A stretch of DNA of 32,000 bases. Source: Candidatus Hadarchaeota archaeon (GTDB taxonomy: Archaea > Hadarchaeota > Hadarchaeia > Hadarchaeales > Hadarchaeaceae). Numbering within the stretch: the first letter of the stretch is position 1; every line of letters begins with the position of its first letter. The translations under genes were made by a program, and so were the position numbers. Location of the stretch: contig CAZETV010000001.1 in assembly GCA_964514965.1 (NCBI GenBank), forward strand, positions 663,063 to 695,062, given 5' to 3'. This document shows positions 2,457 to 26,506 of the stretch, piece by piece. The notes under the pieces were generated by a model. That model did not search any database. It was not told the origin of the DNA and saw only the letters and a list, made by a program, of their open reading frames with translations.

Positions 2457-2471
2457 TATAACAATGTTATG
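2457..2471. promoter_or_regulatory. TATAAC-N3-GTTATA-type palindrome (TATAACaatGTTATg) on the promoter of the HTH regulator gene
   Basis: Read directly. It overlaps TTTTATAA and ends 9 nt before ATG 2480, which fits a leaderless mRNA. Confidence 0.4.
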
Positions 2472-2479
2472 TGATAACC

Positions 2480-2860
2480 ATGAAGCCTCCTTGTGAAATT
2501 GTGGTCAAAGATATCCTACCTGCGATAAGGGCGGTGCTCGTAAGGGACCTTATCAAGCGCCACAAGCTGAATCAGGTCGAGGTTGCGAAAAAGATGGGCA
2601 TCACTCAGCCAGCGGTTAGCCAGTACCTCAGCGAACTTCGAGGTGCGAGTTACGCGGGACTATTCAAGAGGCGAGAGATTGCACAATCGGTGAGGAAGCT
2701 CTCGGATACTATTGCCAGCGGGAAGGTTAAGCCTAGTCAAACCCTCCAAATGTACTGTAACATCTGCAAGCATATAAAGAAAAGAGAAATTCTTTGTATC
2801 TTACACGCAAAATCCGCCCCCTATCTAAAGGAGGAAGGCTGCCGGATTTGTCTTGGTTGA
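2480..2860 (+). CDS. archaeal HTH transcriptional regulator with a C-terminal Cys motif (COG2522-like)
   Basis: MKPPCEIVVKDILPAIRA plus the HTH KKMGITQPAVSQYLSELRG resemble my memory of the COG2522 family. The C-terminus carries CNIC...CRIC. ATG 2480 is preferred over GTG 2471. Confidence 0.65.
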   Translation: MKPPCEIVVKDILPAIRAVLVRDLIKRHKLNQVEVAKKMGITQPAVSQYLSELRGASYAGLFKRREIAQSVRKLSDTIASGKVKPSQTLQMYCNICKHIKKREILCILHAKSAPYLKEEGCRICLG

Positions 2861-3286: not shown

Positions 3287-3361
3287 TGGAGCCGGGAGAG
3301 GGAATTGCACCCCCGTGAGCGGTTCTGCAGACCGCTGCCTGAGCTACTCGGCCACCCCGGC
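3287..3361 (-). tRNA. tRNA-Cys (anticodon GCA), CCA encoded, U73 discriminator
   Basis: Hand-folded cloverleaf. Acceptor stem is GCCGGGG/UCCCGGC. Anticodon stem is GCGGU/ACCGC with loop CUGCAGA. T stem is GGGGG/CCCUC. The 5' half resembles M. jannaschii tRNA-Cys (GCCGGGG...AGGCAGCGG.CUGCAGA). Confidence 0.85.
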
Positions 3362-3375
3362 ACTTAAAATATAGA

Positions 3376-3390
3376 TATAACGGCGTTATA
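3376..3390. promoter_or_regulatory. perfect TATAACggcGTTATA palindrome between tRNA-Cys and the CopA-like gene
   Basis: Read directly. It overlaps the TATA-like boxes that could serve both divergent transcription units. Confidence 0.45.
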
Positions 3391-3400
3391 AAATTAACGG

Positions 3401-5584
3401 TTGATGGGTATGGCGGGAAAAAAAATTGAGTTGACCATTGAGGGTATGCATTGCCCAGGGTGTGCAGCCACTATCGAAAAGGCGTTAGTGAAAACTGCAG
3501 GTATACATCGTGCAAGCGTGAACTTTACTACTAGAAAATCCACCATCGAGTATGACCCCAAAAAAGTGACCGTAGAGAGAATAAAAAAATGCGTAGAGGA
3601 CATTGGCTACAAAGCGAGAGAAGAGGAGTTATTTGAAAAGAGAAGATGGCGTGAAAAAAAGCATATCCTCTTTATACTATTTGGTTTATCCCTAACAATA
3701 CCTGTGGCCCTTACCGAACTTTTTCTTGAATTCTCAGAAAAAGCTCTCTTTCTTTTTCTTCTGGCAACCCCTGTTCAGTTCATTGTTGGATGGCGTTTCT
3801 ATCGAGGAGCATATTATTCGTTGAAGAGAAAATTTGCAAGTGTCGATGTGCTAGTTGTTTTAAGCACCTCCGCTGCGTACTTCTACAGCGTAGGGGCGAC
3901 ATTTTTTATTGCGGGACCAACTTTCTATGAAGCATCCACGGTAGTTATCACTACAATCGCAATCGGTATGACATTAGAAGAGCATGCGCGGGGGAGGACA
4001 GGGGAAGCAATTAGAAAACTCATGCAACTTCAACCCAAATCTGCTGTTGTAATAAGAAATGGAAAAGAAATTGTAGTTCAAGTCGAAGAGGTTCAAGTTG
4101 GAGATACTGTTATCATAAAACCAGGAGAAAGGATTCCAGTCGACGGCAGAGTTATCAACGGATATTCCTCCGTGGACGAATCGGCAATTACTGGCGAATC
4201 TATCCCCGTTGAAAAGAAAAAGGGCGATTTGGTGATCAGTGCAACGATAAATAAAACGGGCACATTGAAGTTTAAGGCCACAAAAGTGGGAAAAGAGACT
4301 ACACTATCCCAGATAATTAAACTGGTAGAAGAAGCCCAGACATCTAAGGCGCCTATTCAAAACATTGCGGATACGGTGGTGAATTATTTTGTACCGATAG
4401 TTCTGGCTGTGGCCGGAATCAGTTTTATTGTTTGGTTTTTTGTACAGGGATTCACCTTCTTATTTGCTTTAACCGTTTTCGTTAGTGTTTTAGTAATTGC
4501 TTGTCCATGCGCCTTAGGAATCGCCACGCCAGCCGCCTTAATGGTTGGTTTAGGGAAGGGAGCGGAACACGGAATACTAATAAAAGGGGGTGGAGCGCTG
4601 GAACGAGCACATAGGATAGATACTATAGTTTTTGATAAAACTCATACATTAACGGTCGGAGAGCCGAAAGTTACAAACGTCGTTGCATCTAGCAACAAAA
4701 AAGATGTGTTATGGTTTGCGGCTATCGCTGAAAAGGGTTCGGAACATCCTCTCGCAGGCGCCATCGTAAGCAAAGCGGAAAAAGAATTGAAGAAGGTTCC
4801 TGATGCTGATTGGTTTAAAACCATACCCGGACATGGTGTGAAAGCTAGATATAAAGAAAAGATTATCTTACTCGGTAACCGAAAATTGATGATAAAGAAC
4901 AAAATAAGTATAGACCATTTTGAAAAACAAATTACTAAATTTGAGGAAGAAGGAAAAACTGTGATGATTTTGACCGTCGGCAAAAAAGCTTTAGGAATTA
5001 TTGCCACTGCAGATGTATTGAGAAAAGATTCTTCGAAAGCTGTAAGAAAACTTCAAAAAATTGGAATAGAAGTTATTATGCTAACGGGAGACAACGAGAA
5101 AACAGCAAACGCAATAGCAAAAAAAGTTGGGATTAAAAAGGTTTTGGCAAATGTTCTCCCAGAAGAAAAATCAAAAGCGCTGAAAAAGTTGCAGAATGAG
5201 GGAAAAATAGTCGGAATGGTTGGAGATGGCATAAATGATGCTCCAGCGCTCACGCAAGCAGATGTGGGGATTGCGATCGGCTCCGGAACCGATATCGCAA
5301 TTGAAGCTGGAAATGTTGTTTTGGTCAAGGACGATTTGATGGATGTAGCCTGTCTCATGAAATTAAGCAAAAAAACAATGGGTAAAATCAAACAAAATTT
5401 GTTCTTCGCATTCTTTTACAATATCTTAGGGATACCTATAGCAGCCGGAATCCTGTATCCCTTCCTCCATACTGTAGTAGTTTCTCCTGTAATTGCTGCA
5501 ATCGCCACGATCACGAGCGACATATGCGTAGTTGGGAATTCCTTATTGCTTAAAAAGTTTAAACTAGCTAAAATTCATTCATAA
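3401..5584 (+). CDS. copA: P1B-type heavy-metal (Cu+-type) ATPase, single HMA domain, atypical DKTHT phosphorylation motif
   Basis: It carries [15 protein letters not shown] (HMA), TGES, the CPC transmembrane motif, SEHPL and GDGINDAP. The phosphorylation site reads FDKTHTLT. The start is ambiguous (TTG 3401, ATG 3404 or ATG 3410). It is markedly AT-rich. Confidence 0.9.
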
Positions 5585-7092: not shown

Positions 7093-7107
7093 AATAACGC
7101 TGTTATA
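7093..7107. promoter_or_regulatory. TATAAC-N3-GTTATA-type palindrome (aATAACgctGTTATA) in the thi4 / COG1900 divergent intergenic region
   Basis: Read directly, with 1 mismatch. Confidence 0.35.
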
Positions 7108-11100: not shown

Positions 11101-11547
11101 CTATTCACGGGCAAGATGTCTTTTGTAGGAGTTCGCGCAATGCACGCAGCAGAACATCAACATTTTTCCATCCATTCGCTCCTTGTGACCACCCTCGTAG
11201 ACCTTGCATCCACAGTGAGCGCACTTGGTCAACTTTGGTTCCAAAATTATAGAAACAATATCACTAAATCTGCCCAAGATTCGAGAAGTAGTTTTCCTTC
11301 CTTCACTCGTTAGCGTGTAAACTTTTTTCTTCCTGTCTCCCATCTTCACCACTTTGTGGGTCATCAGCCCGCTCTCCTCCAGCTTCTTTAAGAGCGGGTA
11401 AATCTGCCCTGGTGACGGTTTCTTGCCAAGTTTTTTCTCCAACTCCTCCATTATTTCATACCCGTGCCGAGGGGTCTCACTAAGAAGCACAAGCATGTAA
11501 AATTTGGTTAGGTTTGTGATATCCCCTCGCTCACCGACCATGAACAC
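11101..11547 (-). CDS. PadR-type winged-helix regulator fused to a C-terminal TRASH-like Cys motif (putative copper-responsive regulator)
   Basis: FYMLVLLSETPRHGYEIMEELEKKLGKKPSPGQIYPLLKKLEESGL is PadR-like. The C-terminus CAHCGCKV...FCCVHCANSY is a TRASH/YHS-like metal motif. It is divergent from copA. The start could be GTG 11547 or ATG 11541. Confidence 0.8.
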   Translation of the reverse strand: MFMVGERGDITNLTKFYMLVLLSETPRHGYEIMEELEKKLGKKPSPGQIYPLLKKLEESGLMTHKVVKMGDRKKKVYTLTSEGRKTTSRILGRFSDIVSIILEPKLTKCAHCGCKVYEGGHKERMDGKMLMFCCVHCANSYKRHLARE

Positions 11548-14310: not shown

Positions 14311-14481
14311 ATGGTGAAAAATCCAGTCTGCGTCATGGACGTAGATGAGCGAAAAGCGGAGTTCAGGTAGAACTATCGTGGAAAGGTATACCCCTTCTGC
14401 TCGGTCGTGTGTATACGATGGTTCAGGAAGCGTCCGCAGAAGTACCTGAAGGGACAATCTAAAAAAGTGGACTACTTATGA
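14311..14481 (+). pseudogene. second YHS-domain gene interrupted by an in-frame TAG
   Basis: MVKNPVCVMDVDERKAEFR-TAG(14368-14370)-NYRGKVYPFCSVVCIRWFRKRPQKYLKG... is colinear with the neighbouring YHS protein. Confidence 0.6.
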
Positions 14482-14798
14482 AGAAGAACTAAACAATGCT
14501 CTGCTGTTTGGGACTTTTTGCAGATCTTTTCATCTGGCAATATCTGGGCGACCCATGGATAGTAATAGCCCCAGCCGTTGGATTCATCGTGAATTAGTTG
14601 AAGATGTGAAATTGTTCCAGAAAAAGCGTCCAGTCAAGAAGGGGGCTTGCCATGTCTGAGGTTTCCACTCGTGCTCGTGTTATTGTTCATAGCGGTATGG
14701 GCCCCCTGTTGCACAAGCGATGCCATATTCTCCCACCTATTCGCGAGAAGACCAAAACACATTAGAAGGACTTCCTAATACCCGCCGAAAGCCTTTTA

Positions 14799-14813
14799 TA
14801 TAACACTGTTATA
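14799..14813. promoter_or_regulatory. perfect TATAACactGTTATA palindrome overlapping the TTTTATATAA box upstream of the Met/Cys mini-ORF
   Basis: Read directly. Confidence 0.45.
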
Positions 14814-14827
14814 GAAAAACCGAAAGA

Positions 14828-14878
14828 ATGGTGATGATGATGAGGGATTTAGTTTGCCCGTGCTGTGTTTGCTGCTGA
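14828..14878 (+). CDS. 16-codon Met/Cys-rich mini-ORF (MVMMMRDLVCPCCVCC), candidate leader peptide or metal-binding micropeptide
   Basis: Hand translation. A TATA-like box is centred ~29 nt upstream and there is no SD, which fits leaderless geometry. It lies upstream of the sulfate-reduction operon. Confidence 0.35.
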   Translation: MVMMMRDLVCPCCVCC

Positions 14879-14973
14879 CTTAGTCACTACGCGGTTTTCA
14901 GCTGACCGTGTAAATTTGGTAATTTCAATCAATCACTTTTTATCTGTTATAGAACTAGTGAGGGGTCTGTCCG

Positions 14974-15750
14974 ATGCCCATTGAGACACTAGTCGCGATC
15001 GTGCTGGTCGGGGCCTTGGGCGGATATCTCGGCGGAATCGTGGGGGCGGGCATAGGAGCGACCGTAGTCCCTGGCCTAATTTTGCTCGGCATTGACCCCA
15101 TCATCGCGATTGGCTCAAGCTTGCTGCTACATGTGCTGATAGCTCCTCTTGGTGGGATCGCTCACTACAAATTTGGACACGTACGGCGAAGAATCTTAGT
15201 TCCATTGGTTCTAGCTGGGGTTCTGGGGGCCTTCTTCGGTGCCAACGCTTCCACACACCTACCTGCAGATGTGTTGAAGCTGCTCGTAGGCATCTCAGCC
15301 ATTGCTGCAGGCCTGCTAATCACAGTTAGATACCCTAGAACCAACCAGCGAAAGTTAACACTCCCCTCTGTCAAAAAAAGACTTCGGGTAGTCAGTACAC
15401 CCACGATAACAGCAATCGCCCTTATCGTGGGACTTTTATATGGGGCGTCGGGTGCAATGTGGGGCTCGATCGGTGTCCCTCTTTTAATTATAGTTGGAGT
15501 CACCCCTCACGTTGCGGTTGGTTCATCTCTGCTGGCACGATCCATCGTCGCCTTGGCCGGATCCTCAACCTACTACTTCCTGAACGGCATTCAAGCGGAC
15601 ATCATTCTATCGTTACTCGCTGGGGGGTCAATTGCTATTTTGCTCGGCGCACTCACCACAAAACGCCTTCCGTCCAGAAAGTTAAAACTAATCGTGGGCG
15701 TAGCTGTTATCGTGCTCGGCGCATCCGTCTTGGTGAAACAGATGATTTAA
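14974..15750 (+). CDS. TauE/SafE (DUF81) family anion permease, putative sulfate/sulfite transporter
   Basis: 258 aa and polytopic, with Gly-rich helices arranged in two similar halves, as is typical of DUF81. A GTGAGGGG SD lies upstream. Confidence 0.8.
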   Translation: MPIETLVAIVLVGALGGYLGGIVGAGIGATVVPGLILLGIDPIIAIGSSLLLHVLIAPLGGIAHYKFGHVRRRILVPLVLAGVLGAFFGANASTHLPADVLKLLVGISAIAAGLLITVRYPRTNQRKLTLPSVKKRLRVVSTPTITAIALIVGLLYGASGAMWGSIGVPLLIIVGVTPHVAVGSSLLARSIVALAGSSTYYFLNGIQADIILSLLAGGSIAILLGALTTKRLPSRKLKLIVGVAVIVLGASVLVKQMI

Positions 15751-17487
15751 ATGACACGACCAAAACGAAATACCGTAGAACAAAAACAAATCGATACAGA
15801 TATCTTGATAATCGGTGGTGGCACAGCTGGATGCATGGCTGCCGTCGAGGCGAAGTGGCTAGACCCGAAACTCAAAGTTGTCATCATGGAGAAGGCCCAC
15901 ATCGACCGAAGCGGCTGTTTAGCTGGGGGAATGAACGCCATCAACGTTTACCTCCACCCCGGGGAAACTCCCGAAAGCTTTACCCGCTATGTGCGATGGC
16001 AAGCGATGGGACTCTGTCGTGAGGACCTCACCATCAGCATGATCAAGGAGGTCAACTCAGCGGTCAAGCGCGTCGAGGAGTGGGGGCTTCCCATCCTAAA
16101 AGATGAAAATGGGAACTACTCACGGCGGGGTCGATGGAACGTCAGGATTAACGGGGAAGCTCTCAAACTGATCCTCGCCGAAGCTGTAAAGAAGTCGAAG
16201 GTTACCACACTTAACCATACTGTCGCAACCAATTTCATTCTCGATGAGAACCGCGTGGCTGGGGCATTCGGCTTTAGCATTCGTGACAAAAAATTTTACG
16301 TCGTTAAAGCAAATGCCACCATCGTCGCCACTGGCGGCGCCTCCGGTATCTACCGCCCGAACAACCGAAGCGATGCCCACCACACAATGTGGTACTGCCC
16401 CTTCAACACGGGAGCTGGATATGCGATGGGTATCCGCGGGGGAGCCGAAATGACTAGTTTTGAAATGCGGTTCATAGCACTTCGCGTGAAAAACATTATC
16501 GCCCCCACGGGCACGCTCGCCTTAGGCTTCGGCGCGCCACAAGTCAATGCGAGGAGTGAACAATATATGAAAACGCGCTATGCTCACCTTGGCGGCGAGG
16601 GCGCCCCGACACCAATCCGAGTTTACGCTCCGACCCAGGAGGCAAAGGAAGGGAGGGGACCGTGCTACCTAGACACTCGTCACCTCAGCCAGGAGCGAGT
16701 CAGAGAACTCAAAGCCAGCTATCTCGACATGTACCCTCAGATGACCCTCTATCTCGCGGCGAACCGCATCGATCCGAGCAAGCAACCAATCGAGATTGCC
16801 GGCACCGAACCCTATGTGGTGGGTGGGCACTGCCAAGCTGGTTACTGGGTGGACGAAAACAGAAAGACCACTCTCAAGGGTCTCTTTGCGGCTGGCGATA
16901 TCGTTGGAGGAGTGCCCTACAAGTTCGTTTCGGGTTGCTGGGCGGAGGGCATTATCGCCACCCGCGCAGCTGTAGAATTTACTAGAGCGAACAAGCACGG
17001 AAAAATCGGCACCACACAAGTCAAACGTGAAATGGAGCGGGTCTACGCCCCTCTCAGAGATAAAAAAGCCAGTGGGGGCGTGCGACCGAGGGAGTTGGAA
17101 GAGGAACTACAAAAGGTGATGGACGAGTACGCTGGAGGTATAAGCACATTTTACGAGATGGATAAGAAGCGCCTTCTAGTCGCACACAGGATGCTCCAAA
17201 AACTAAAGAAACAAACCAAAAACTTGATTGCCAAGAACTTACATGAGCTTATGCTTGCCCACGATGTAATCGACCGAATCGAAGTGGCGCAGGTGTTGGT
17301 GAAACACTTAATCTTTAGAATGGAAACTCGATGGCCAGGGTACCAAACGAGGCTCGACCACCCGAAGCTCGACGATGAGAACTGGCTATGCTTCGCCAAC
17401 AGCCGACGCGACCCGAAGACCGGGGAGATTAAGGTGTTCAAAGTTCCTTACAAACAAATCGTATCAGGAGATCGATATAAACCGTGA
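15751..17487 (+). CDS. aprA: adenylylsulfate (APS/PAPS) reductase alpha-subunit-like flavoprotein
   Basis: DILIIGGGTAGCMAAVEA is the FAD fold. EKA.I.RSG, FYVVKA.ATIVATGGA and AAGDIVGG are colinear with Archaeoglobus AprA as I recall it. The neighbours are a 2x[4Fe-4S] subunit and sat. Confidence 0.8.
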   Translation: MTRPKRNTVEQKQIDTDILIIGGGTAGCMAAVEAKWLDPKLKVVIMEKAHIDRSGCLAGGMNAINVYLHPGETPESFTRYVRWQAMGLCREDLTISMIKEVNSAVKRVEEWGLPILKDENGNYSRRGRWNVRINGEALKLILAEAVKKSKVTTLNHTVATNFILDENRVAGAFGFSIRDKKFYVVKANATIVATGGASGIYRPNNRSDAHHTMWYCPFNTGAGYAMGIRGGAEMTSFEMRFIALRVKNIIAPTGTLALGFGAPQVNARSEQYMKTRYAHLGGEGAPTPIRVYAPTQEAKEGRGPCYLDTRHLSQERVRELKASYLDMYPQMTLYLAANRIDPSKQPIEIAGTEPYVVGGHCQAGYWVDENRKTTLKGLFAAGDIVGGVPYKFVSGCWAEGIIATRAAVEFTRANKHGKIGTTQVKREMERVYAPLRDKKASGGVRPRELEEELQKVMDEYAGGISTFYEMDKKRLLVAHRMLQKLKKQTKNLIAKNLHELMLAHDVIDRIEVAQVLVKHLIFRMETRWPGYQTRLDHPKLDDENWLCFANSRRDPKTGEIKVFKVPYKQIVSGDRYKP

Positions 17488-17496
17488 GGTGTTTGA

Positions 17497-17814
17497 ATGG
17501 CTGTCTTGATCGACGAGAAAAAGTGCACGGGTTGCGGGATCTGCGTGGAGCTTTGCCCAGGCGACTTGCTGGCTCTAGAACCGAAGTCGAAAAAAGCTTT
17601 CATCTGGGACAACTCTGACTGCTGGAATTGCTTGGTCTGTGTCAAACACTGCCCCGTGGACGCCATCACTCTCAAGCTCCCAAAATCGATTGCCCCCTAC
17701 GACGCCACACTCACACCAGAAATGAGGAAAGATAAAACCGTGTGGACCTTGACCGATGCCAGCGGCGAAATGGAAAAGTTTGAGATAAAAAGGAAATCTG
17801 CAGGAGGTGCTTGA
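17497..17814 (+). CDS. aprB: APS reductase beta-subunit-like 2x[4Fe-4S] ferredoxin (short form)
   Basis: It carries CTGCGICVELCP and CWNCLVCVKHCP. It is 105 aa and sits directly between the aprA-like gene and sat. Confidence 0.7.
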   Translation: MAVLIDEKKCTGCGICVELCPGDLLALEPKSKKAFIWDNSDCWNCLVCVKHCPVDAITLKLPKSIAPYDATLTPEMRKDKTVWTLTDASGEMEKFEIKRKSAGGA

Positions 17815-18963
17815 ATGGAGCTTGTCAATAGGGTTTTGACCAGCCAGAAAAGGATGAAGGTGTTGGAGGAGCTGAAAGAATACCCGTCCGTGATAGCGAG
17901 CGCCGAAATGATCATGGACGCCGAACTCATCGCCACGGGTGGCTATACTCCAATCGAAGGGTTCCTTACAAATGAGGATTTCGAAAGTGTCCTTGAGCAC
18001 ATGCACCTAGTCAACGGCTCACCTTGGACCATTCCCATTGTTCTACCCGTCGATGAAAAAATAGCGGGCGGGCTCAAGGAAGGAGATGATGTAGTTCTAC
18101 TGGATAGTGCAAAAAATTCAATCGCCGTGCTTCACTTGAAGGAAAAATTCAAGTACGACAAAAAGCGCATGGTTCAGAAAATCTTCCGTACCGCCGATGA
18201 AAAACATCCTGGAGTTGCAGCGATTTACGGCTGGGGAGATTTCCTATTAGGTGGAGAAATTGATCTAGTCAACCGCCCAAAACATGTCTTCGAGCGATAC
18301 AACTTAGACCCTGCACAGACGAGGAAAGAGTTCAAGGAGAGGGGGTGGCGCACCGTTGTCGGATTCCAGACCCGCAACCCCATCCACCGCTCACACGAGT
18401 ACCTCCAGAAGTGTGCCCTTGAAGTCGTAGACGGGTTGTTCATCCATCCAATTGTTGGTTGGACGCGAAAGGGAGATGTGCCAGCTGAGGTGCGAATTGA
18501 AAGCTACGAGATAGTTTTGAACAACTACTATCCGCGCAACCGATTCCTGCTGGCGACGCTCTCGACTGCGATGAGGTACGCCGGGCCTAGGGAAGCGATT
18601 TTCCACGCGCTCGTACGGAAGAACTTCGGCTGCACTCACTTTATCGTCGGTCGCGACCACGCCGGGGTTGGGGATTATTACGACCCCTATGACGCTCAGC
18701 GAATCTTTTATGAATTCAAGGAAGGAGAACTCGGTATAACTCCAATGTTCTTTGAAAATGCATTTTTCTGCGTGTTGTGCGACGCGATGGCAACCAAGAA
18801 AACTTGTCCGCATCTGAAGAGCACACGAATAGCTCTCAGTGGCACGAAAGTGAGAGAACTCTTGCTTGAAGATAAACGAATCTCAGAAAAGGTAGTCCGC
18901 CCCGAAGTAGCAGAACTTTTGGCAGAGCATTATGCTATCGAGAAATCCAAAGGGGCGAGATAG
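17815..18963 (+). CDS. sat: sulfate adenylyltransferase (ATP sulfurylase)
   Basis: GFQTRNPIHRSHEYL and HFIVGRDHAGVG are the signature motifs. Confidence 0.92.
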   Translation: MELVNRVLTSQKRMKVLEELKEYPSVIASAEMIMDAELIATGGYTPIEGFLTNEDFESVLEHMHLVNGSPWTIPIVLPVDEKIAGGLKEGDDVVLLDSAKNSIAVLHLKEKFKYDKKRMVQKIFRTADEKHPGVAAIYGWGDFLLGGEIDLVNRPKHVFERYNLDPAQTRKEFKERGWRTVVGFQTRNPIHRSHEYLQKCALEVVDGLFIHPIVGWTRKGDVPAEVRIESYEIVLNNYYPRNRFLLATLSTAMRYAGPREAIFHALVRKNFGCTHFIVGRDHAGVGDYYDPYDAQRIFYEFKEGELGITPMFFENAFFCVLCDAMATKKTCPHLKSTRIALSGTKVRELLLEDKRISEKVVRPEVAELLAEHYAIEKSKGAR

Positions 18964-18964
18964 G

Positions 18965-19405
18965 ATGTACCTCCCGCTCCACATTAACCTGCGCGGGAAG
19001 AAAGTTTTGATCATCGGGTTGGGTAAGGTCGGGAAAAGGCGTGCTGAGAAATTGTTAAAAGCCGGCGCAAGCGTTACAGCCATTGATCGAAGGAAGGTGC
19101 GAGTCAAAAAAGGCGTGAGATTTATTCAAAAAAGTTTGCGGCGGAATGATATCCCATCCCTCAAAAAATATTTTCTTGTCGTGGCTTCCACCGATGATAA
19201 AAAATTGAACGCTGCTATCGCAAGAAACGCTAAACGAGAAGGTTGCTTAATTAACCGTGCTGACCTCTTTAAAAATGGGAATATACTCTTTCCAGCCGTT
19301 GTCAAAACGGGTGCGGGCATCATATCTTTCGCGACAATCGGAAGGAACCCGCGGCTGTCAAAGCAAATCAAGAAGGCGCTCAAACATGAGCTTCCCAAGA
19401 GCTAG
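18965..19405 (+). CDS. sirC: precorrin-2 dehydrogenase (SirC / CysG N-terminal type), short form
   Basis: LPLHINLRGKKVLIIGLGKVGKRRAEKLLKAGASVTAI is the NAD fold of siroheme synthase N-domains. ATG 18965 lies 1 nt after the sat stop. Confidence 0.7.
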   Translation: MYLPLHINLRGKKVLIIGLGKVGKRRAEKLLKAGASVTAIDRRKVRVKKGVRFIQKSLRRNDIPSLKKYFLVVASTDDKKLNAAIARNAKREGCLINRADLFKNGNILFPAVVKTGAGIISFATIGRNPRLSKQIKKALKHELPKS

Positions 19406-20381
19406 ACTGAGAAGATTAAGAAAAAGCGAAAAGATACGCGAGTTGGTAAGCGGGATTTCTCTCAACAAGCATGATTTTGTGTACCCAGTTTTCGTGAAGG
19501 AAGGATTGACTAGCAGAAGCGAGATACGCAGTATGCCCGGACAGTATCATCACTCACTGCGCGAATTGGGCAAATTCGCCGAGGAATGCGAAACCAATGG
19601 GGTGCTGGGAATGCTTATCTTCGGGACCCCAAGAAAAAAAGACATCTGCGGGAGCGGGGCGTACAATGTAAACGGGATTGCGCAAAGAGCCATCAAACGC
19701 GTGAAGGAAAAATCTGAACTCGTTGTCTTCACGGATGTTTGCCTCTGCCAGTACACGACGCACGGTCATTGCGGAGTGCTTACGAAACAGGGAATTGATA
19801 ACGATCGCACGCTCAGGCTCCTAGCCAAAACTGCTGTATCCCATGCTCGCGCTGGAGCAGATTTCGTCGCCCCTTCGAGCATGATGGATGGGCAAGTGAA
19901 GACAATTCGTGATGCCTTAGATGCAAGCGGGTTCAAGGATGTGGGGATAATGAGTTATTCCACCAAGTTCGCCAGCTCCTTTTATGGGCCATTTCGAGAA
20001 GTGGTTGAGAGCAACCCGAAGCGCGTGCAGGGTTTGCCCTACCTCGCTGACCGAAGCACTTATCAAATGGACTTCCGGTCGCTTGAGCAAGCGATGCGCG
20101 AAATTTCGCTCGACGTGGAAGAGGGCGCAGATATCACCATGATAAAACCCGCTTTGCCCTACCTCGATGTGATCTGTGAAGCTAAGCGAAGGTTCGACCT
20201 ACCGTTGGCCGCTTATCAGGTAAGTGGAGAGTATGCGATGATAAAGCTGGCGTGCTTGCGCGGACTGCTTGACGAAAGACGAGCCTTCCTCGAAACTCTG
20301 ACCTCGATCAAGCGAGCCGGCGCAAATTTTATCATAACTTATGCTGCACTTGACGCTGCTCGGTGGTTAAGTGAGAGTTAG
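19386..20381 (+). CDS. hemB: porphobilinogen synthase (ALA dehydratase), Zn-type
   Basis: The N-terminus is MSFPRARLRRLR. DVCLCQYTTHGHCG is the Cys-rich Zn site. ATG 19386 overlaps the sirC end. Confidence 0.9.
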   Translation: MSFPRARLRRLRKSEKIRELVSGISLNKHDFVYPVFVKEGLTSRSEIRSMPGQYHHSLRELGKFAEECETNGVLGMLIFGTPRKKDICGSGAYNVNGIAQRAIKRVKEKSELVVFTDVCLCQYTTHGHCGVLTKQGIDNDRTLRLLAKTAVSHARAGADFVAPSSMMDGQVKTIRDALDASGFKDVGIMSYSTKFASSFYGPFREVVESNPKRVQGLPYLADRSTYQMDFRSLEQAMREISLDVEEGADITMIKPALPYLDVICEAKRRFDLPLAAYQVSGEYAMIKLACLRGLLDERRAFLETLTSIKRAGANFIITYAALDAARWLSES

Positions 20382-21222
20382 GGTTGGCACGCGGGGTAGT
20401 AAGCTAGCAATTCTGCAGACCCGAAGAGTGATAGAAAAAATGAAAACTGTGATTCCCAACCTTAAGGAAGAAATTAAGATAATCAAAACCAGCAGAGATT
20501 TGCGGCGAATTAAGATCAATTCAGGAGTTTTCGTGAATGAGATAAATCGAGCGGTGCTTCGGGGAAAAATTGATATTGGTGTTCATAGCCTCAAAGACCT
20601 GCCAACAAGAGTACCCCAAGGTCTTTCACTTGCCTGTGTGCCCGAGCGGCTTGCCCCAAACGATGCCCTCATCTCGCGCGGTGGTACCGGCCTTTACAGC
20701 CTGCCTAATGGAGCGGTGCTTGGAACTTCAAGCCCCCGGAGGAAAGCTGAAATCATCCACCTTCGTCCCGACCTGAAGTTCAAGGACATCCACGGTAACA
20801 TCGACACCCGCATCCGAAAAATGGAGGAGGGATCCTATGATGGAATAATCGTCGCCCTCGCCGCTCTCCAGAGATGCGGTCTTCAGAAACTGGTGACTCA
20901 GCGCTTTGAACTAGACGAAATAGTACCCACGGCTGGCCAAGGAGCACTTGGGGTCGTTTGCAAACGAGACAGAGATTTTCTCGATAAAATATCGCAAATC
21001 AACGATGATGTAGCTTGGCGTGAAACGATGTGCGAGCGCACCTTCATGGAGAAACTAAGATTCGATTGCAAAACGCCTGCTGGAGCTGTTGCAAGGTTAA
21101 TGGATGGTGAAATCGAGCTGATAGTCGTTATTCATAAAAACGGCAGGCAATTGCTGAAGCTAAGAGGGCAAGACCCTAAAAATCTCGGAATAAAAGCAGC
21201 GAAGATGGTATCGAAGAGGTGA
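20371..21222 (+). CDS. hemC: hydroxymethylbilane synthase (porphobilinogen deaminase)
   Basis: The N-terminus is RVGTRGSKLAILQT, with HSLKDLPT further in. The GTG start overlaps the hemB end. Confidence 0.9.
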   Translation: MRVRVGTRGSKLAILQTRRVIEKMKTVIPNLKEEIKIIKTSRDLRRIKINSGVFVNEINRAVLRGKIDIGVHSLKDLPTRVPQGLSLACVPERLAPNDALISRGGTGLYSLPNGAVLGTSSPRRKAEIIHLRPDLKFKDIHGNIDTRIRKMEEGSYDGIIVALAALQRCGLQKLVTQRFELDEIVPTAGQGALGVVCKRDRDFLDKISQINDDVAWRETMCERTFMEKLRFDCKTPAGAVARLMDGEIELIVVIHKNGRQLLKLRGQDPKNLGIKAAKMVSKR

Positions 21223-21241
21223 TATAATACATAACATCCGC

Positions 21242-22330
21242 TTGACCCATAAGGAAGTTGGTGTCGAAAAGATCCCTGAAGCGGGGCGTGCCATCAGAAA
21301 TTTTGTCGTCACTCAGTCCATCGGCGATTATGTTGTTATACAAACTTGCAACCGAGCAGAGTTGTACTATCTTGATAGCACTTCTCAATCGCCTGATGGT
21401 TTCGTGTTCGAAAGCGGAACCGAGGCATTTCGACACCTTTTACGAGTAGCATGTGGTTTGGAATCGTTTGTCATAGGAGAAACGGAAATCCTAAATCAAA
21501 TCAAAAAGGCTTTCGTGCTCGCCAGAAAAGAAAAGCATTGTTCAAGGAAACTTGCGAAGTATTTTATGAATGCAATTAAAGTCGGGAGAAAAGCCAGAAA
21601 ACTTACAAAAATAAGTGTTGGTAAAGTGAGCACAGTCTCACTCGCACTTGAGTATGTCCAAGACTTGCTCGGCGATTTAACAAGAAAAAAATTTTTGGTG
21701 GTTGGAGCAGGCGAAACAGGCACAAAAGTTGCAAGGGCCCTCAAAAACATGAACGTTAAAAAAATGTTAATATCAAATCGTAACTATTACAAGGCTTTAA
21801 GATTATCTCGAGAAATAGCTGGTTCGGCCTATCATCTCTCGCGATTGAAAGACCTACTCAGAAAAGTGGATGTGGTCTTCTGTGCAACGAGTGCACCCCA
21901 CCCAATACTTACTAAAAATAAAATTGAAGTGGCTAAACAAGAAATTATACTTGTAGACCTTTCAGTTCCACGAAATGTTGAAGAATCGATACGAGAGCTT
22001 GAAAATGTTAAACTAATTTCCTTTCGAGACCTTACCGAGAAATCTAACAGAAATATGAGTGAACGGAGAAAAGAAATTAGAAAAGTTGAGGAAATCATAG
22101 ACTCTGAGCTCGCTAATAGAGATAATTTACGTGAACTTTACATTCACGCCGAACGAATAAGGAAAAAAGAGGTGAAAAAAGCTTTGCGTTTATTGACTAC
22201 CAAAGATTCCGAAGAAGTTATCGAGGGGCTGAGCAAATCCCTCGTCAAAAAGTTGTATTACCCTTTGAGAAAACGTGCCACGAAAATTGAAATTACCACA
22301 AGAACTGCTGGAAAAACGCGAAAAAAGTGA
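21242..22330 (+). CDS. hemA: glutamyl-tRNA reductase
   Basis: IQTCNRAELYY contains the catalytic Cys motif. VVGAGETGTKVARAL is the NADPH fold. It has a TTG start and a short N-terminus, and it is AT-rich. Confidence 0.85.
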   Translation: MTHKEVGVEKIPEAGRAIRNFVVTQSIGDYVVIQTCNRAELYYLDSTSQSPDGFVFESGTEAFRHLLRVACGLESFVIGETEILNQIKKAFVLARKEKHCSRKLAKYFMNAIKVGRKARKLTKISVGKVSTVSLALEYVQDLLGDLTRKKFLVVGAGETGTKVARALKNMNVKKMLISNRNYYKALRLSREIAGSAYHLSRLKDLLRKVDVVFCATSAPHPILTKNKIEVAKQEIILVDLSVPRNVEESIRELENVKLISFRDLTEKSNRNMSERRKEIRKVEEIIDSELANRDNLRELYIHAERIRKKEVKKALRLLTTKDSEEVIEGLSKSLVKKLYYPLRKRATKIEITTRTAGKTRKK

Positions 22331-23748
22331 AAAATATGGAAAAGAAAAAATTTGGTAAAGTGTATCTAGTTGGCTGTGGTCCAAGTAGTCCGGACCTTCT
22401 AACTCTTCGCGCCATTAAAATTCTGAAGAAAGCCGACGTAGTCTTTTATGACCGCCTCATAGACTCGACTGTTTTAAAATATGCTAGGAGAGCGAGGAAG
22501 GTGTATAGTGGAAAACACGGTGGTGAAGCGTGGAAACAGATTTATTTAAATAAACGCCTTTATCGAGAGGCTAAAAAGGGGAAAGTTGTTGTACGTCTTA
22601 AAAACGGCGACCCTTTTATTTTCGGTCGAGGGGGTGAGGAACTCCAGTATCTCCAGGGACGTGGCATCGAGGTAGAAGTCGTTCCCGGGCTTTCCTCAGC
22701 TCTCGTGTTGCCGGGAATTGCAAAAATTCCGTTAACCAAGCGAGATGTGTCTTCAAGCCTGACCATCGTGAGCGGTCGTGGGGCGGGCGGTAGGAAACCA
22801 CGCTGGAGCGGATTAGGCAACACGGTAGTCGTATTGATGCCCCTTGAGAATTTGGGCTGGATAATCCGTAGGCTTCTCTCAGGAGGCAAAAATAGGATGA
22901 AACCTTGCGCGCTGATAAGCAGTGGGACGATGACAGAAGAACGAATATTTGTATCAACTCTAGACAAAATTGCTGACGCTGCGGAGCGCCTTAGGTTCAA
23001 ACCGCCAGCAGTTTTTGTTGCTGGAGAGGTCGTTGGCGCCCTGCTCGACTTCAGAGGGCGACGTGTAGCAGCTTTCAGAGCGAGCAACGAGATAAAGCGG
23101 ACCGAGAGACTGATTAAACGCACCGGTGGCGCCCCTAACGTCTTCGAGATATGTGATATCAATCCGGCCGATGGTACTCTAAAGCGGGCTAGTAAGCAGA
23201 AATGGGAGGCGCTTGTCTTCATGAGCACCAATGGGGTTCGATCGGGAGCAAAGTTCTTTGACTTAAAAACATGCGTAACCATCGCAGTCGGTAATAGGAC
23301 GAAACGGGAACTCGAGCGCTTCGGTTGCAAGTCCATTATTGTTCCAAGAAAACAGAATGTGAAAAGTGTGGAAAAACTCTTGAAAGAGCAAAAGTGGCGT
23401 ACGGTTCTAGCCCTCAGATCTCCGTTGGCTAAGGGCAAGCTTGCGAGCGCCGTCAATATCCCTGCTTACCATATCAAGTTCAAAAACCTTACCCGAACCG
23501 TAAACAGTTATATCAAAACAAAGGATGATTTCACCCTCCTGACGAGTGCTGGACTGCTCGAGCACTTACTGAAAGCGGCGGACAAACTCGGGCTCAGGCA
23601 GGACTTCGTGCGAAAAATGAATCGAACCTTTGTCATTTCGCTAGGCGAAAACATAACCAAATGCGCGTTGGGGAATGGCATCAAGGTAAACCACGAGCCC
23701 GAACATCCGACCCTTGATTCGCTCTTCAGAAGAGGTGGAATTAGATGA
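22327..23748 (+). CDS. cobA: uroporphyrinogen-III C-methyltransferase fused to uroporphyrinogen-III synthase (CobA-HemD)
   Basis: VYLVGCGPSSPDLLTLRAIKILKKADVVFYDRL is the SUMT N-terminus. A ~230-aa C-terminal extension has HemD-like length and position. The GTG start overlaps the hemA stop. Confidence 0.8.
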   Translation: MKNMEKKKFGKVYLVGCGPSSPDLLTLRAIKILKKADVVFYDRLIDSTVLKYARRARKVYSGKHGGEAWKQIYLNKRLYREAKKGKVVVRLKNGDPFIFGRGGEELQYLQGRGIEVEVVPGLSSALVLPGIAKIPLTKRDVSSSLTIVSGRGAGGRKPRWSGLGNTVVVLMPLENLGWIIRRLLSGGKNRMKPCALISSGTMTEERIFVSTLDKIADAAERLRFKPPAVFVAGEVVGALLDFRGRRVAAFRASNEIKRTERLIKRTGGAPNVFEICDINPADGTLKRASKQKWEALVFMSTNGVRSGAKFFDLKTCVTIAVGNRTKRELERFGCKSIIVPRKQNVKSVEKLLKEQKWRTVLALRSPLAKGKLASAVNIPAYHIKFKNLTRTVNSYIKTKDDFTLLTSAGLLEHLLKAADKLGLRQDFVRKMNRTFVISLGENITKCALGNGIKVNHEPEHPTLDSLFRRGGIR

Positions 23749-25001
23749 GGTCTCGCTCGCGTCGGCTTTACGAGAGGGCGAAGCGTTTGCTGCCGGGAGG
23801 TGTTGACAGCCCTGTGCGTACATTCGAGCCTCATCCATTCTTCATCGAGCGGGGCGAGGGTTCAAAAATTCGTGATGTCGATGGCAACGAGTATGTGGAT
23901 TATTGCTTAGCCTATGGCCCCCTGATTCTTGGGCATCAACCACCAAGTGTGATGAAGGCAGTCAAGAAGCAAATTCAGAGAGGGATCCTCTTCGGCATCC
24001 CGAGCGAGCTTGAACTTGAGCTAGCAGAAAAAATTACTAAACACGTTCCATGCGCGGATATGGTGCGATTCGTAAACTCTGGAACCGAGGCGACGACGAG
24101 CGTCGTGAGGCTAGCGCGGGCCTACACCAACCGGGAAAATATACTCATCTTCGACGGCTGCTATCACGGGGCTAACGACCACTTTCTATTTGGAAAAAAG
24201 GGGCCGAAGAGCCCAGGTATCCCACACATGCTCAGGCGGAACACCCTTGTGGCCTCGTTTAACGACCTCACGAGTGTTGAAAAAATCGCGAGAAAAAACG
24301 AGCTCGCGGCAATTATTGTTGAACCGGTGATGGGTAACCTAGGGTGCATCCAACCAGCGGAGGGTTTCCTGAAGGGGCTACGGGAGATTTGCGATGAGCA
24401 CGGGGCGCTGTTGATATTCGACGAGGTGATTACCGGCTTCAGGCTGGCTCTCGGTGGTGCCCAAGAGTTTTTCAACGTTGTACCTGAACTCGCTACCTTA
24501 GGAAAAATCATTGGAGGAGGCTTCCCAATCGGTGCATTTGTTGGTAATGCTGAAATTATGGAGCTGGTAGCACCTGCTGGCAAGGTTTACCATGCTGGAA
24601 CTTTCTGCGGACACCCGGTCGCCATGGCTGCCGGGTTAGCCACCATTAAAACGCTAGAGAGGAAGAAAGCGATCGAGCGAGCGTGTAACTTTGCCCGCAA
24701 GTTGGCAGATACCTTAAGGCGCGAGCTCGAGCTACCCGTGAATCAAGTTGCGTCGATGTTTCAAGTGTTCTTCACTGAAGGAAATGTCAGCTCAGCCGAT
24801 GACGCTAGGAAGTGCGATAAAGAGGCGTTTATGCGATTTCACTGCGCTTTGCTAAAAAATGGTGTCTTCGCCACGCCCTCGCAGTTCGAGTGCTGGTTTA
24901 CCTCTGCCGCGCATACGAAAGATGATTTCGAAATTACGAAAAAAGCGATAACCATTGCTTCTAACGAAATTTTTAAAACAATGAACTCAAAATGTGGGTG
25001 A
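23745..25001 (+). CDS. hemL: glutamate-1-semialdehyde 2,1-aminomutase
   Basis: It carries LLPGGVDSPVR, NSGTEAT and FDEVITGFR. The ATGA start overlaps the upstream gene. Confidence 0.92.
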   Translation: MRSRSRRLYERAKRLLPGGVDSPVRTFEPHPFFIERGEGSKIRDVDGNEYVDYCLAYGPLILGHQPPSVMKAVKKQIQRGILFGIPSELELELAEKITKHVPCADMVRFVNSGTEATTSVVRLARAYTNRENILIFDGCYHGANDHFLFGKKGPKSPGIPHMLRRNTLVASFNDLTSVEKIARKNELAAIIVEPVMGNLGCIQPAEGFLKGLREICDEHGALLIFDEVITGFRLALGGAQEFFNVVPELATLGKIIGGGFPIGAFVGNAEIMELVAPAGKVYHAGTFCGHPVAMAAGLATIKTLERKKAIERACNFARKLADTLRRELELPVNQVASMFQVFFTEGNVSSADDARKCDKEAFMRFHCALLKNGVFATPSQFECWFTSAAHTKDDFEITKKAITIASNEIFKTMNSKCG

Positions 25002-25006
25002 TTTGA

Positions 25007-26506
25007 ATGAAGCACACGTTAGAAATCCCAACCGACGATATCATGCGATTCACGGACAAGTACTCACTGGGAAGGGACAAGGGAATGGGCTCCCGGCACT
25101 TCCTGAGAATAAAAGTGCTCGCGGGCACGCTGACCTCTGAACAGCTTCGTGAGATTGCGCAGATGGCGGACGACTACAGCAAGGGCTATGCTGAGATAAC
25201 TGACCGCCAAGACATTCAACTGCACTGGGTCCAAGGAAAGGACGCGCCGGAAGTCTTCACTCGGCTTGAAAAGCTCGGTTTCACCACAGACAAATGTGGC
25301 CAAGCTTTTCCTGGCGCACGTTATGGTGATGTGCGGAATGTCGTCGTTTGTCCGATTACTGGTGTAAACAAAAACGAACTCATTGATGTCTCACCTCTCG
25401 CCACGCAAATAAACGAGTTTTTCCTAGGTAACCGGAACTTCCTTGACATGCCAAAGAAATTCAAGATTTCTATCACGGGCTGCGAGCTTTGCTGCACTAA
25501 GCCAGAAATTCAAGATTTAGGTCTGTTCGCGGTAAAGCACGAAGGCAAGATCGGATTTGCGGCTCTCGTGGGCGGGTCGGTCGGCTCGACGCAGCCAGGA
25601 CCAAGGCTCGCGAAGCCGCTGGGCGTTTTCATCAAGCCCGACGAAGTTTTAGAAGTGGCAAAAACGCTGGCGGAGATTCACCGTGACTACAGCAACCGTG
25701 AAAGCAAGACCAAAGCGCGGTTCAAGTGGATTGTCGACAGCTGGGGCGTAGAACGAGTGAGGGAGAAACTAGAGGAGAAACTTGGGAAGAAGCTTGAGCG
25801 ATATGAGCTCAAACCAAAGATTAGTGGCGAGGAGCATATTGGTGTGCAAAGACAGAAAGACGACCACTATTTTATCAATATCCCACTAATCGGGGGAATC
25901 CTCTCGAGCGAGTTAATACGAAAGGTAGCTAATATTGCCAGCAAATTCGGGAGTAGTGAATTAAGACTCACTCCCTTCCAAAACTTAATTCTAATCAACA
26001 TTCACAAGAAGAAGGTCGACGAGGCTTTAAAGCAGCTTGAGGGAACGGGCCTGCCAGTGAAGGGCACACCACTTCGCTGGACGACCATTGGCTGCGCCGC
26101 AGATTTCTGCGGGAAGTCAATCGAGCCCTACCCGAAACAGATGGCGAAGGAAATAGTTGATTACTTGGAGAACCGCTTCGGTGTTACGCTAAACGATTTG
26201 AAGCTAAAGTTGCTCGTAACTGGCTGTCCTAACGACTGTGGCTTGCGTGCAATAGGGAACATTGGATTGCTCGGTGTGCAGGTAAAGAAGAACGAGAGTA
26301 AAGAATTTTATAACATTTACTTAGGCGGCACCTTGGGCGCAAACGCGTCGCTCTCTGAACTCGTGGAGAAAATGCTAAAGCCAGAGCAGGTAAAAACAAT
26401 GATTGAGAAGCTCGTCGTGGGGTGCCTGAAGGAAGGATTCAAAGACTTTGGGGAGTTCTGCCGCGCTCATAAGCTGGAAGAGCTGAAATTGATTGCGACC
26501 GAATAA
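25007..26506 (+). CDS. sir: siroheme/[4Fe-4S] sulfite (nitrite/sulfite) reductase, monomeric two-repeat type
   Basis: The C-terminal half carries GCAADFCGKS...TGCPNDCGLRA (cluster/siroheme Cys ligands). The N-terminal half carries a related ITGCELCC. The context is sat, aprAB and siroheme genes. Confidence 0.8.
   Translation: MKHTLEIPTDDIMRFTDKYSLGRDKGMGSRHFLRIKVLAGTLTSEQLREIAQMADDYSKGYAEITDRQDIQLHWVQGKDAPEVFTRLEKLGFTTDKCGQAFPGARYGDVRNVVVCPITGVNKNELIDVSPLATQINEFFLGNRNFLDMPKKFKISITGCELCCTKPEIQDLGLFAVKHEGKIGFAALVGGSVGSTQPGPRLAKPLGVFIKPDEVLEVAKTLAEIHRDYSNRESKTKARFKWIVDSWGVERVREKLEEKLGKKLERYELKPKISGEEHIGVQRQKDDHYFINIPLIGGILSSELIRKVANIASKFGSSELRLTPFQNLILINIHKKKVDEALKQLEGTGLPVKGTPLRWTTIGCAADFCGKSIEPYPKQMAKEIVDYLENRFGVTLNDLKLKLLVTGCPNDCGLRAIGNIGLLGVQVKKNESKEFYNIYLGGTLGANASLSELVEKMLKPEQVKTMIEKLVVGCLKEGFKDFGEFCRAHKLEELKLIATE

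Follow-up and report, generated by a model that had tools for sequence, protein, structure and literature searches.

The stretch of DNA discussed here, 32,000 nucleotides of Candidatus Hadarchaeota archaeon (contig CAZETV010000001.1, positions 663,063 to 695,062; hereafter the window), carries an operon for the conversion of sulfate to sulfide that opens with a TauE gene, and just in front of that gene lies a very short open reading frame (ORF), MRDLVCPCCVCC, in which five codons out of twelve specify cysteine (Cys). We find that this small ORF (sORF) is, with high confidence, a conserved and translated leader that acts in cis on the operon, and we think it probable that what it senses is Cys-transfer RNA (Cys-tRNA). 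Beyond this, and with a confidence that stays slightly short of even, we propose that Hadarchaeota use a natural 'hungry-codon' +1 frameshift, at the sequence NUU-UGC, as an amino-acid sensor that would hand ribosomes over to the sulfate operon. A sequence-only reading of the window, which had placed a Cys- and methionine-rich mini-ORF at this site, was the starting point of the analysis; its claims are taken up below where the results bear on them.

The loci needed for comparison were gathered via a scan for AprA in species-representative genomes, via TauE homologues followed by contig look-ups, and via a scan of metagenomes for a DNA pattern. The best match to AprA belongs to a Hadesarchaea metagenome-assembled genome (88% identity), the remaining close matches being from Hadarchaeota. 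A Cys-rich sORF stands immediately 5′ of TauE at 17 Hadarchaeota loci, which represent 13 distinct leaders (14 with that of the window; the relatives are designated by L numbers), and the distance from sORF to TauE is 94-134 nucleotides across leaders. The sole locus with a TauE homologue and no sORF, L078-L081, differs in its gene context. What lies beyond the leader on its 5′ side is not the same from locus to locus (CopA/YHS, ApbE, HcyBio-NIL-ferredoxin, ThiS, glutaredoxin, a KaiC-like ATPase or a divergent gene), and the constant association with TauE therefore indicates that the element goes with the sulfate operon rather than with the copper genes. Such ORFs are rare: with minimum thresholds of 4 Cys and 30% Cys, about 7 distinct ones were retained among 33,529 small ORFs from 67 related loci; three of these were the TauE leader, which leaves about 4 per 1.3 Mb scanned elsewhere. 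No other Cys-rich intergenic ORF, of the kind that might make up a 'ribulon', was found in the 32-kb window, and no Cys-rich sORF was found in front of the homologous AprA operons of Nitrospirota, Hydrothermarchaeales, Firmicutes and others; the element is, on the sequences scanned, specific to Hadarchaeota. When metagenomes were scanned for the motif that runs from the Shine-Dalgarno sequence (SD) of the leader to its first Cys codon, 3 true loci came out, all of them duplicates of known ones, together with 5 unrelated matches. The latter (L083, L084, L086, L087 and L089) share a near-identical segment that encodes MGGIFCRKYSDSACSKSVACCFSSFVT and has a hairpin and a T run behind it; this segment looks like a repeated element of another organism.

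The way in which these leaders vary is that of a translated sequence. The SD and sORF together have a mean pairwise identity of 0.69; fourfold degenerate sites of TauE are saturated, at 0.38 (0.47 to the nearest relatives), and non-promoter DNA upstream of the promoter falls to 0.22. Most of the leader ORFs have 12, 13 or 14 codons, differing by whole codons. The start codon is maintained, with a change from ATG to GTG in one leader; the stop varies between TGA, TAG and TAA and follows directly upon the last Cys in nearly all leaders. The peptides of the relatives read MRDLLCGCCDCC, MRDLVCCGCRAC, MRDVVCCCRCCRC, MGDLVCPCCEGDCC, MRGLVCCGKCCDCC, MRDGLCDCACCICC, MGYSLCHCECCGCC, MRDLLCDCCDCC, MRDSVCDCCDCC, MRDLVCPCCDCC (the single leader with a GTG start) and MRDVVCCCRCC(R/W)C. 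Nearly all of them contain 4-7 Cys codons at shifting positions (1-2 in degenerate ones), the codons alternating synonymously between TGC and TGT from one leader to another, and the residues found between them are free (P/G/D, V/D/R/E). Now, a number of Cys that is kept while their positions and the intervening residues vary agrees with a role for the Cys codons themselves and not for a folded peptide. Codons 2-5 behave otherwise, with amino-acid replacements and not a single synonymous change, which places their constraint at the nucleotide level. Alignment of orthologues had been proposed as a check of whether the frame and its methionine and cysteine codons are conserved: the frame and the Cys codons are kept, TGC and TGT varying, but the methionine codons are found in the window only.

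Two degenerate forms of the leader deserve separate mention. At L038 (910-960) and L082 (2863-2913) frame 0 encodes MRDLVCLNSD up to a TAA, beyond which GSSCC and a TAG follow in the same frame; as read from the sequence, what was once a longer Cys ORF has acquired a premature stop, with one Cys codon ahead of it. At L002 (5590-5993) the leader is MWDLFCCSS, with two Cys and without the GGTGGTG SD; it has an additional in-frame ATG close to the predicted transcription start, and the TauE gene downstream is internally deleted, with 72 amino acids.

The extent of the ORF has to be revised. The earlier reading made it begin at ATG 14828 and end at TGA 14876-14878, and the product, MVMMMRDLVCPCCVCC, can be read in the window sequence as described. 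The in-frame starts at 14828, 14831, 14834 and 14837, which could lengthen the leader ORF, are however specific to the window. An SD, GGTGAT in the window and GGTGGTG in relatives, sits 5-6 nucleotides 5′ of the conserved ATG in all leaders except the degenerate L002; in the window it lies inside the longer ORF and serves ATG 14837/14840, which contradicts the view that no SD was present. The window copy of GGTGGTG has mutated to GGTGATG (14830-14836), and by that mutation alone a run of in-frame ATG and GTG codons has come into being, so that the richness in methionine is peculiar to the window, and the sensing of this amino acid suggested on its account is not supported. The same holds for the geometry of a leaderless messenger: besides the SD just described, an in-frame TAA directly precedes the conserved ATG in L003 and L074, and an in-frame ATG near the predicted transcription start is restricted to the window (ATG 14828) and L002.

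The evidence for frameshifting comes from a frame other than that of the sORF. In every leader the +1 frame stays open, with no internal stop, over the whole distance between the first Cys codon and the TauE start. Read in that frame, the Cys tract UGC UGC becomes GCU GCU, coding for alanine, and reading continues past the frame-0 stop through the spacer, to end between 4 nucleotides before and 11 nucleotides after the TauE start (the first base of the +1 stop being placed, in all leaders, from 4 nucleotides upstream to 8 nucleotides downstream of the A of the TauE start codon). The resulting geometries are TGATG, ATGA, TAGTG, TAGATG, TAG-N-ATG, or a TGA inside ATGNCCATTGA. Which frame TauE occupies with respect to the sORF (0, +1 or +2) depends on the lineage, and the +1 frame nonetheless ends at the TauE start. 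Between the first Cys codon and the TauE start, 11 less-redundant leaders display 32 stops in frame 0, 2 in frame +1 and 32 in frame +2 (binomial P 1.4e-9, or 8e-8 when the sORF's own stops are omitted), and both +1 stops in this count are terminal ones, 3-4 nucleotides before the ATG. Dinucleotide shuffles give an open +1 frame a probability of 0.06-0.38 per leader, the product being 3e-6 for 8 lineages with unalignable spacers; the frame is likewise open in two leaders that were analysed after the idea had arisen, L002 (AT-rich spacer, P 0.065) and L093 (P 0.37). From one lineage to another the +1 peptides have nothing in common beyond the alanine that comes from the Cys codons and the glycine that comes from the TauE SD, which argues that the passage of ribosomes is selected, not a protein product. 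As to how ribosomes would enter this frame, it has no conserved start codon, and the GTG or ATG codons that occur early in some leaders lack an SD; a +1 frameshift from the sORF would therefore be the simplest route in.

A plausible place for the shift exists. The sequence NUU-UGC, with the first Cys codon as its second half, is invariant in 14 of 14 distinct leaders, NUU being GUU in nine of them, CUU in four (L001, L068, L092, L093) and UUU in one. The first base of the shift codon thus changes the amino acid (valine, leucine, phenylalanine), while its degenerate third base is always U, and this fits the need for UUU in the new frame. Even L038, L082 and L002, with their 1-2 Cys codons, retain both NUU-UGC and the open +1 frame. 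An SD-like element within the leader ORF, possibly a frameshift stimulator, has an invariant GGG core (variants GAGGGA, GGGGGA and GGGGUA) and stands at a constant 5 nucleotides from NUU, as against the 3 nucleotides that separate the SD-like stimulator of Escherichia coli prfB from its shift codon. It is also known that +1 shifts are favoured by slow A-site codons, for example at CUU_AGG_C and in the gene of release factor 2 (RF2), and CUU-U followed by such a codon is the core both of the RF2 site (CUU UGA C) and of the yeast Ty1 site (CUU AGG C) (PMC5009743).

We may then picture the control as follows. With ample Cys-tRNA, frame 0 would be read, ribosomes would stop after the Cys run and the spacer would remain untranslated; TauE and the genes downstream would be expressed at a low level, owing to weak independent initiation, to termination in the untranslated U-rich spacer, or to both. 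With scarce Cys-tRNA, the A site would stay empty at UGC and the peptidyl-tRNA would slip from NUU to UUU, later Cys codons offering further chances through out-of-frame entry of alanine or valine tRNA. The shifted ribosome would read alanine codons past the frame-0 stop and translate the spacer (39-53 sense codons), thereby melting structure and shielding the U-rich RNA from termination, until it terminated on the TauE start and re-initiated there by termination-reinitiation coupling, a process that in Archaea needs overlaps or very short gaps (PMC6728339, PMC10666635). The trans-frame peptide predicted for the window is MRDLV-ARAVFAADLVTTR... (MRDLV-ARAVFAAD...). SepCysS is encoded in the window, as had been reported (TIGR02539, 510 bits), and so is a tRNA-Cys; this enzyme forms Cys on the tRNA, and if that route dominates, the sensor may in effect respond to the supply of the sulfide donor. 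Taken as a whole, this model of a +1 frameshift caused by Cys-tRNA shortage and coupled to TauE appears to us evenly poised between being right and being wrong. The original suggestion, of a sensor of cysteine and methionine supply gating the operon, survives as a Cys-codon leader tied in cis to the operon; its methionine part and its read-through of a terminator find no support.

Several points weigh against this model. The frame hypothesis was formed post hoc, and the two later tests that L002 and L093 provided are individually weak; the independent lineages number about 8-11; and the work is computational throughout, on sequences that all come from contigs of uncultured genomes or metagenomes. 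At the shift site, re-pairing of tRNA-Val from GUU to UUU is imperfect, and the SD-like element is at a distance that differs from that of prfB. In a pure slip model one Cys codon would be enough, so that the presence of 4-7 of them requires the added out-of-frame tRNA entry. The depletion of Cys codons in the +1 frame is no more than weak (17 : 5 : 9), and in the leaders that have early +1-frame GTG or ATG codons internal initiation is possible. The TauE SD, with a predicted unpaired probability of 0.11-0.59, has an accessibility that is just moderately low, hence it is not strongly sequestered and TauE might initiate on its own. Finally, +1 frameshifting in a comparable bacterial leader ORF, pheL, has been judged incidental (PMC3082878).

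The explanation that best survives beside frameshifting is a classical stalling leader peptide, in which a pause at the Cys codons would alter the folding of the RNA or block a termination factor, raising transcription or TauE translation, and in which the open +1 frame would be irrelevant. We regard it as unlikely, while giving it serious weight. A short SD-led ORF that closes with a Cys run and precedes a sulfur operon fits the architecture of mycobacterial polycysteine sORFs with their 97-nucleotide spacer, where the Cys tract of Ms5788A pairs with the SD of the next gene, 97 nucleotides downstream (10.1101/834739); four to seven Cys codons suit a stalling sensor; the identity of the spacer, which can be stated for the nearest relatives only, is 0.70-0.74 as compared with 0.47 at neutral sites; and in several leaders the stop and the Cys codons nearest to it are part of small hairpins. 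The folding calculations point the other way. Sequestration of the SD in the manner of Ms5788A was rejected: 14 leaders were folded by partition function with the sORF masked and unmasked, and masking did not consistently make the TauE SD more accessible. In the pairing of this SD the sORF region seldom takes part, with a share of 0.1 or less for most leaders. A selected pairing of sORF and spacer was rejected likewise: the coupling free energy, with a mean z of -0.2 (150 dinucleotide shuffles per leader), was no larger than with shuffled spacers and reached significance in L092 only, and RNAalifold, applied to 8 alignable leaders, gave no net covariation (term +0.44), only 3 pairs having double changes. 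Stalling would also leave unexplained why stops are distributed as they are between the three frames and why the +1 frame should close on the TauE start, and L038/L082 would have to work with a single Cys codon, if they are functional.

The same applies to termination, where the sequence-only reading had proposed a hairpin followed by a T5 tract. The 8-base-pair hairpin (14888-14895 with 14905-14912, one G-U pair) does form and is part of the predicted minimum-energy fold, and both the T5 tract and the GTTATA half-site at 14946-14951 are present in the window. As a terminator, however, this combination finds no support: the hairpin is partly kept in the nearest relatives and absent elsewhere, and the T run shrinks, T5 being kept in the nearest relatives, with runs of T3-T7 elsewhere (T3-T4 in several), not above chance. 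No terminator-like hairpin plus T run, of the bacterial type, was found in the leaders, and archaeal termination is not known to depend on hairpins. A search of the leader against Rfam 15 gave no match at the gathering threshold, nor at E up to 1. One of the 3 pairs with double changes belongs to a possible long-range helix that would join 14830-14835 to 14931-14936 (alignment columns 5-10 and 111-116), that is, the SD of the sORF to the segment before T5; GGTGAT/ATCACT in the window against GGTGGT/GCCACT in relatives makes it the only clear compensatory pair, and the energy statistics are unsupportive.

Next come two overlapping ORFs without recoding, the +1 ORF being coupled to TauE and initiating by itself at an internal GTG, ATG or non-canonical codon, with a frequency modulated by translation of the Cys ORF. 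Start codons of this sort are available in the +1 frame of the window (GTG 14865, opening a 39-amino-acid ORF), L001, L069, L092 and L093, and in L092 the ATG at 562 was called as the start of a 56-amino-acid gene. This remains improbable in our eyes: L091 and L038 have no +1 start at all, the sole ones of L003 and L076 are far downstream of the Cys tract, and the internal GTGs have no SD and lie at unconserved positions, whereas NUU-UGC is invariant. In L092 (562-732) that ATG comes right after the sORF start, and the called protein ends 1 nucleotide before TauE. Re-initiation at the UGAUG that overlaps the sORF stop was also considered and discarded, the AUG being in the +2 frame, which is closed after 12 codons.

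A shade less probable again is a functional frame-0 product, a Cys-rich micropeptide that would carry metal or sulfur on its thiolates for TauE, the sulfate pathway or copper handling. The conservation of the N-terminal MRDL(V/L)C and of C-terminal Cys pairs, and the CopA/YHS neighbours of the leader in the window, L001, L090 and L074, speak in its favour. Yet neither the positions nor the spacing of the Cys are conserved (CxCCxCC, CCGCRAC, CCCRCCRC, CPCCEGDCC and others), codons 2-5 are conserved at the nucleotide level, L038/L082 and L002 are truncated to 1-2 Cys while the rest of the leader is kept, and the open +1 frame is left unexplained. The Cu(I)-binding version that had been put forward as an alternative is further weakened by the fact that the ORF tracks TauE rather than CopA, with CopA/YHS, ApbE, HcyBio-NIL, ThiS, glutaredoxin or an ATPase upstream. 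As for a chance ORF in a promoter-proximal region conserved for other reasons, such as the operator only, it is scarcely credible: a palindromic operator overlapping the TATA box does recur at four other promoters of the window, so that transcriptional control exists independently of the sORF, but it ends 26 nucleotides before the sORF, ORFs so rich in Cys are as rare as noted above, and lineages with spacers diverged beyond alignment still keep the frame, the SD, the start and the stop.

This transcriptional layer is of interest in itself. The A/T-rich box and the perfect palindrome that overlaps it were both confirmed; AAAGC(C/T)TTTATATA is kept in the leaders of relatives, as are the half-sites of the palindrome, and a transcription start is predicted near 14823-14828 from the usual distance between TATA box and start. 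At L091 (about 2671-2740) the sequence just 5′ of the leader promoter ends in GGTTCGAGCCCCGCCCCCGGCACCA and resembles the 3′ end of a tRNA gene. Within the window, ATAAC-N3-GTTAT is present in four exact copies and one with a single mismatch, against 0.48 expected, and the genes behind these copies are those of NifS/NifU, of a small helix-turn-helix (HTH) protein, of a second CopA-type ATPase, of HcyBio with a NIL-ferredoxin, and of the TauE operon. The sequence is thus a candidate operator of a sulfur/metal regulon. The second CopA-type ATPase diverges from tRNA-Cys, and the palindrome at that place, ATAACGGCGTTAT, starts 16 nucleotides upstream of the 5′ end of the tRNA gene; the tRNA that the leader ORF reads may consequently share the same transcriptional control. 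Another copy overlaps the start region of the small HTH protein itself, which makes the latter a candidate for the autoregulated factor that would act at the palindrome.

The operon confirmed by Pfam and NCBIfam searches contains the genes of TauE (Pfam PF01925, 1e-37), AprA (NF005331, 775 bits), an AprB-like ferredoxin, Sat (ATP sulfurylase), a SirC-like dehydrogenase, HemB, HemC, HemA, CobA-HemD, HemL and a siroheme sulfite/nitrite reductase; its description as a sulfate-to-sulfide/siroheme operon stands, with 11 ORFs of at least 100 amino acids in place of the 12 genes announced, and the SD and the ATG of TauE are where they had been placed. Upstream of the leader are found a PadR-TRASH regulator encoded at 11101-11547, CopA and a YHS protein, then some 500 nucleotides without an intact gene. 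Part of this stretch is explained by a second ORF of YHS/TRASH type (14311-14481, forward strand), probably a pseudogene, which gives MVKNPVCVMDVDERKAEFR up to an in-frame TAG (14368-14370) and NYRGKVYPFCSVVCIRWFRKRPQKYLKG... beyond it; an intact counterpart exists in L001 (about 4070-4219).

Table 1. Coordinates, in the window, of the leader, of the operon behind it and of the related promoter elements and genes.
Feature	Position	Strand	Remarks
Palindrome copies, ATAAC-N3-GTTAT	100-112, 2458-2470, 3377-3389, 7094-7106, 14800-14812		each intergenic, abutting an A/T-rich box
Small HTH protein (129 amino acids)	2471-2860	+	weak, sub-threshold similarity to ArsR/SmtB and to sulfite-sensing BigR
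tRNA-Cys (GCA) gene	3287-3361	-	within the sulfur island
TATA box TTTTATATAA	14794-14803	+	preceded by purine-rich AAAGCC, resembling a TFB-recognition element (BRE); read in the window
Palindrome TATAACactGTTATA	14799-14813	+	TATAAC-N3-GTTATA, overlapping the TATA box; N3 variable in relatives
SD of the leader ORF	14830-14835	+	GGTGAT; GGTGGTG in relatives
Conserved leader ORF MRDLVCPCCVCC	14840-14878	+	12 codons, 5 Cys, stop TGA; orthologous ORFs in relatives
SD-like GAGGGA inside the leader ORF	14842-14847	+	GGG core invariant; 5 nucleotides before the shift codon
Proposed +1 shift site GUU-UGC	14852-14857	+	NUU in the P site, then U; first Cys codon in the A site
Open +1 frame ARAVFAADLV...GLSDAH	14856-14984	+	42 sense codons; TGA 14982-14984; 11-nucleotide overlap with the TauE start
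T5 in a pyrimidine-rich tract	14937-14941	+	reads Phe-Leu in the +1 frame; possible oligo-T terminator or anti-SD
TauE SD GAGGGGT and start codon	14960-14966; 14974-14976	+	window sequence
Controlled operon	14974-26506	+	Pfam and NCBIfam

How does this leader compare with systems already described? Leader ORFs with Cys codons are known in mycobacteria, and those for other amino acids are classical in bacteria. The closest likeness is with the mycobacterial polycysteine sORFs (Ms5788A and the 'Cys ribulon'; Canestrari et al., 10.1101/834739): there too an sORF with a Cys run of at least two consecutive codons stands some 100 nucleotides before a cysteine or sulfur operon, low Cys-tRNA being the proposed signal and the ribosome the sensor. 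Those sORFs however belong to Bacteria, have no homology to the present ones and are leaderless, whereas that of Hadarchaeota is SD-led; they pair the Cys tract with a downstream SD, which is not predicted here, and no open alternative frame has been reported for them. With trpL, hisL and pheL attenuators the leader shares the enrichment in codons for the end product (5 Cys of 12 codons in the window, 4-7 of 12-14 in most relatives), the sulfide made by the operon feeding Cys and thus matching the codons of the leader; a terminator/antiterminator pair is, unlike there, not detectable.

Other parallels concern recoding. The RF2 site of prfB, AGG GGG UAU CUU UGA C, has the same P-site NUU followed by U (exactly CUU U in the four CUU leaders), a G-rich SD-like element just upstream, and a frame 0 that closes soon while the +1 frame is open without a start of its own. 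It differs in the spacing of the SD-like element (3 nucleotides, not 5), in that its slow codon is a stop and not the sense codon UGC, whose slowness is assumed here, and in that the +1 product of the Hadarchaeota leader is unconserved and would be a mere carrier of ribosomes to the next gene. Archaea are not known to have prfB. In the ketolide-induced ermC leader (PMC5009743, section 28), a frameshift likewise goes past the leader stop, has the spacer translated and turns on the downstream gene, but it is set off by an antibiotic and acts by unfolding a defined hairpin; in Hadarchaeota a shortage of aminoacyl-tRNA would be the trigger, and the shifted frame ends on the downstream start. This last feature is that of archaeal termination-reinitiation pairs (PMC6728339, PMC10666635), where the upstream stop overlaps or abuts the start (ATGA, TGATG, TAGTG, TAGATG, gaps of 1-4 nucleotides), with the difference that the upstream frame would here be populated conditionally, after a frameshift.

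The chance of a mechanism new in kind is substantial. According to a review of 2021, only one programmed frameshift has been demonstrated in Archaea, and it is of the -1 type (PMC8211752); a review of recoding published in 2016 knew of no case of starvation-induced frameshifting that is utilised (PMC5009743). The opinion that leader-peptide control of archaeal sulfur genes is undescribed agrees with our finding no report of a leader-peptide sensor in Archaea in the literature searched. If the proposed mechanism is true, it would, within that literature, be the first control by a leader peptide and the first +1 programmed frameshift shown in Archaea, as well as the first utilised starvation-induced frameshift in any organism.

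The consequences for annotation may be of general use: conserved stop-free frames can reveal regulation that is missed by ORF finders and by methods based on RNA structure, and database entries for 'hypothetical proteins', such as the 56-amino-acid call of L092, may mark further leaders. For the Hadarchaeota themselves, the data suggest that sulfur assimilation is controlled in two layers, a shared operator present at no fewer than five sulfur and metal promoters and a translational sensor specific to the sulfate operon. Sensing by leader peptides is a textbook mechanism of bacteria, and a cassette of about 190 nucleotides could show that archaeal ribosomes, too, are used as metabolic sensors.

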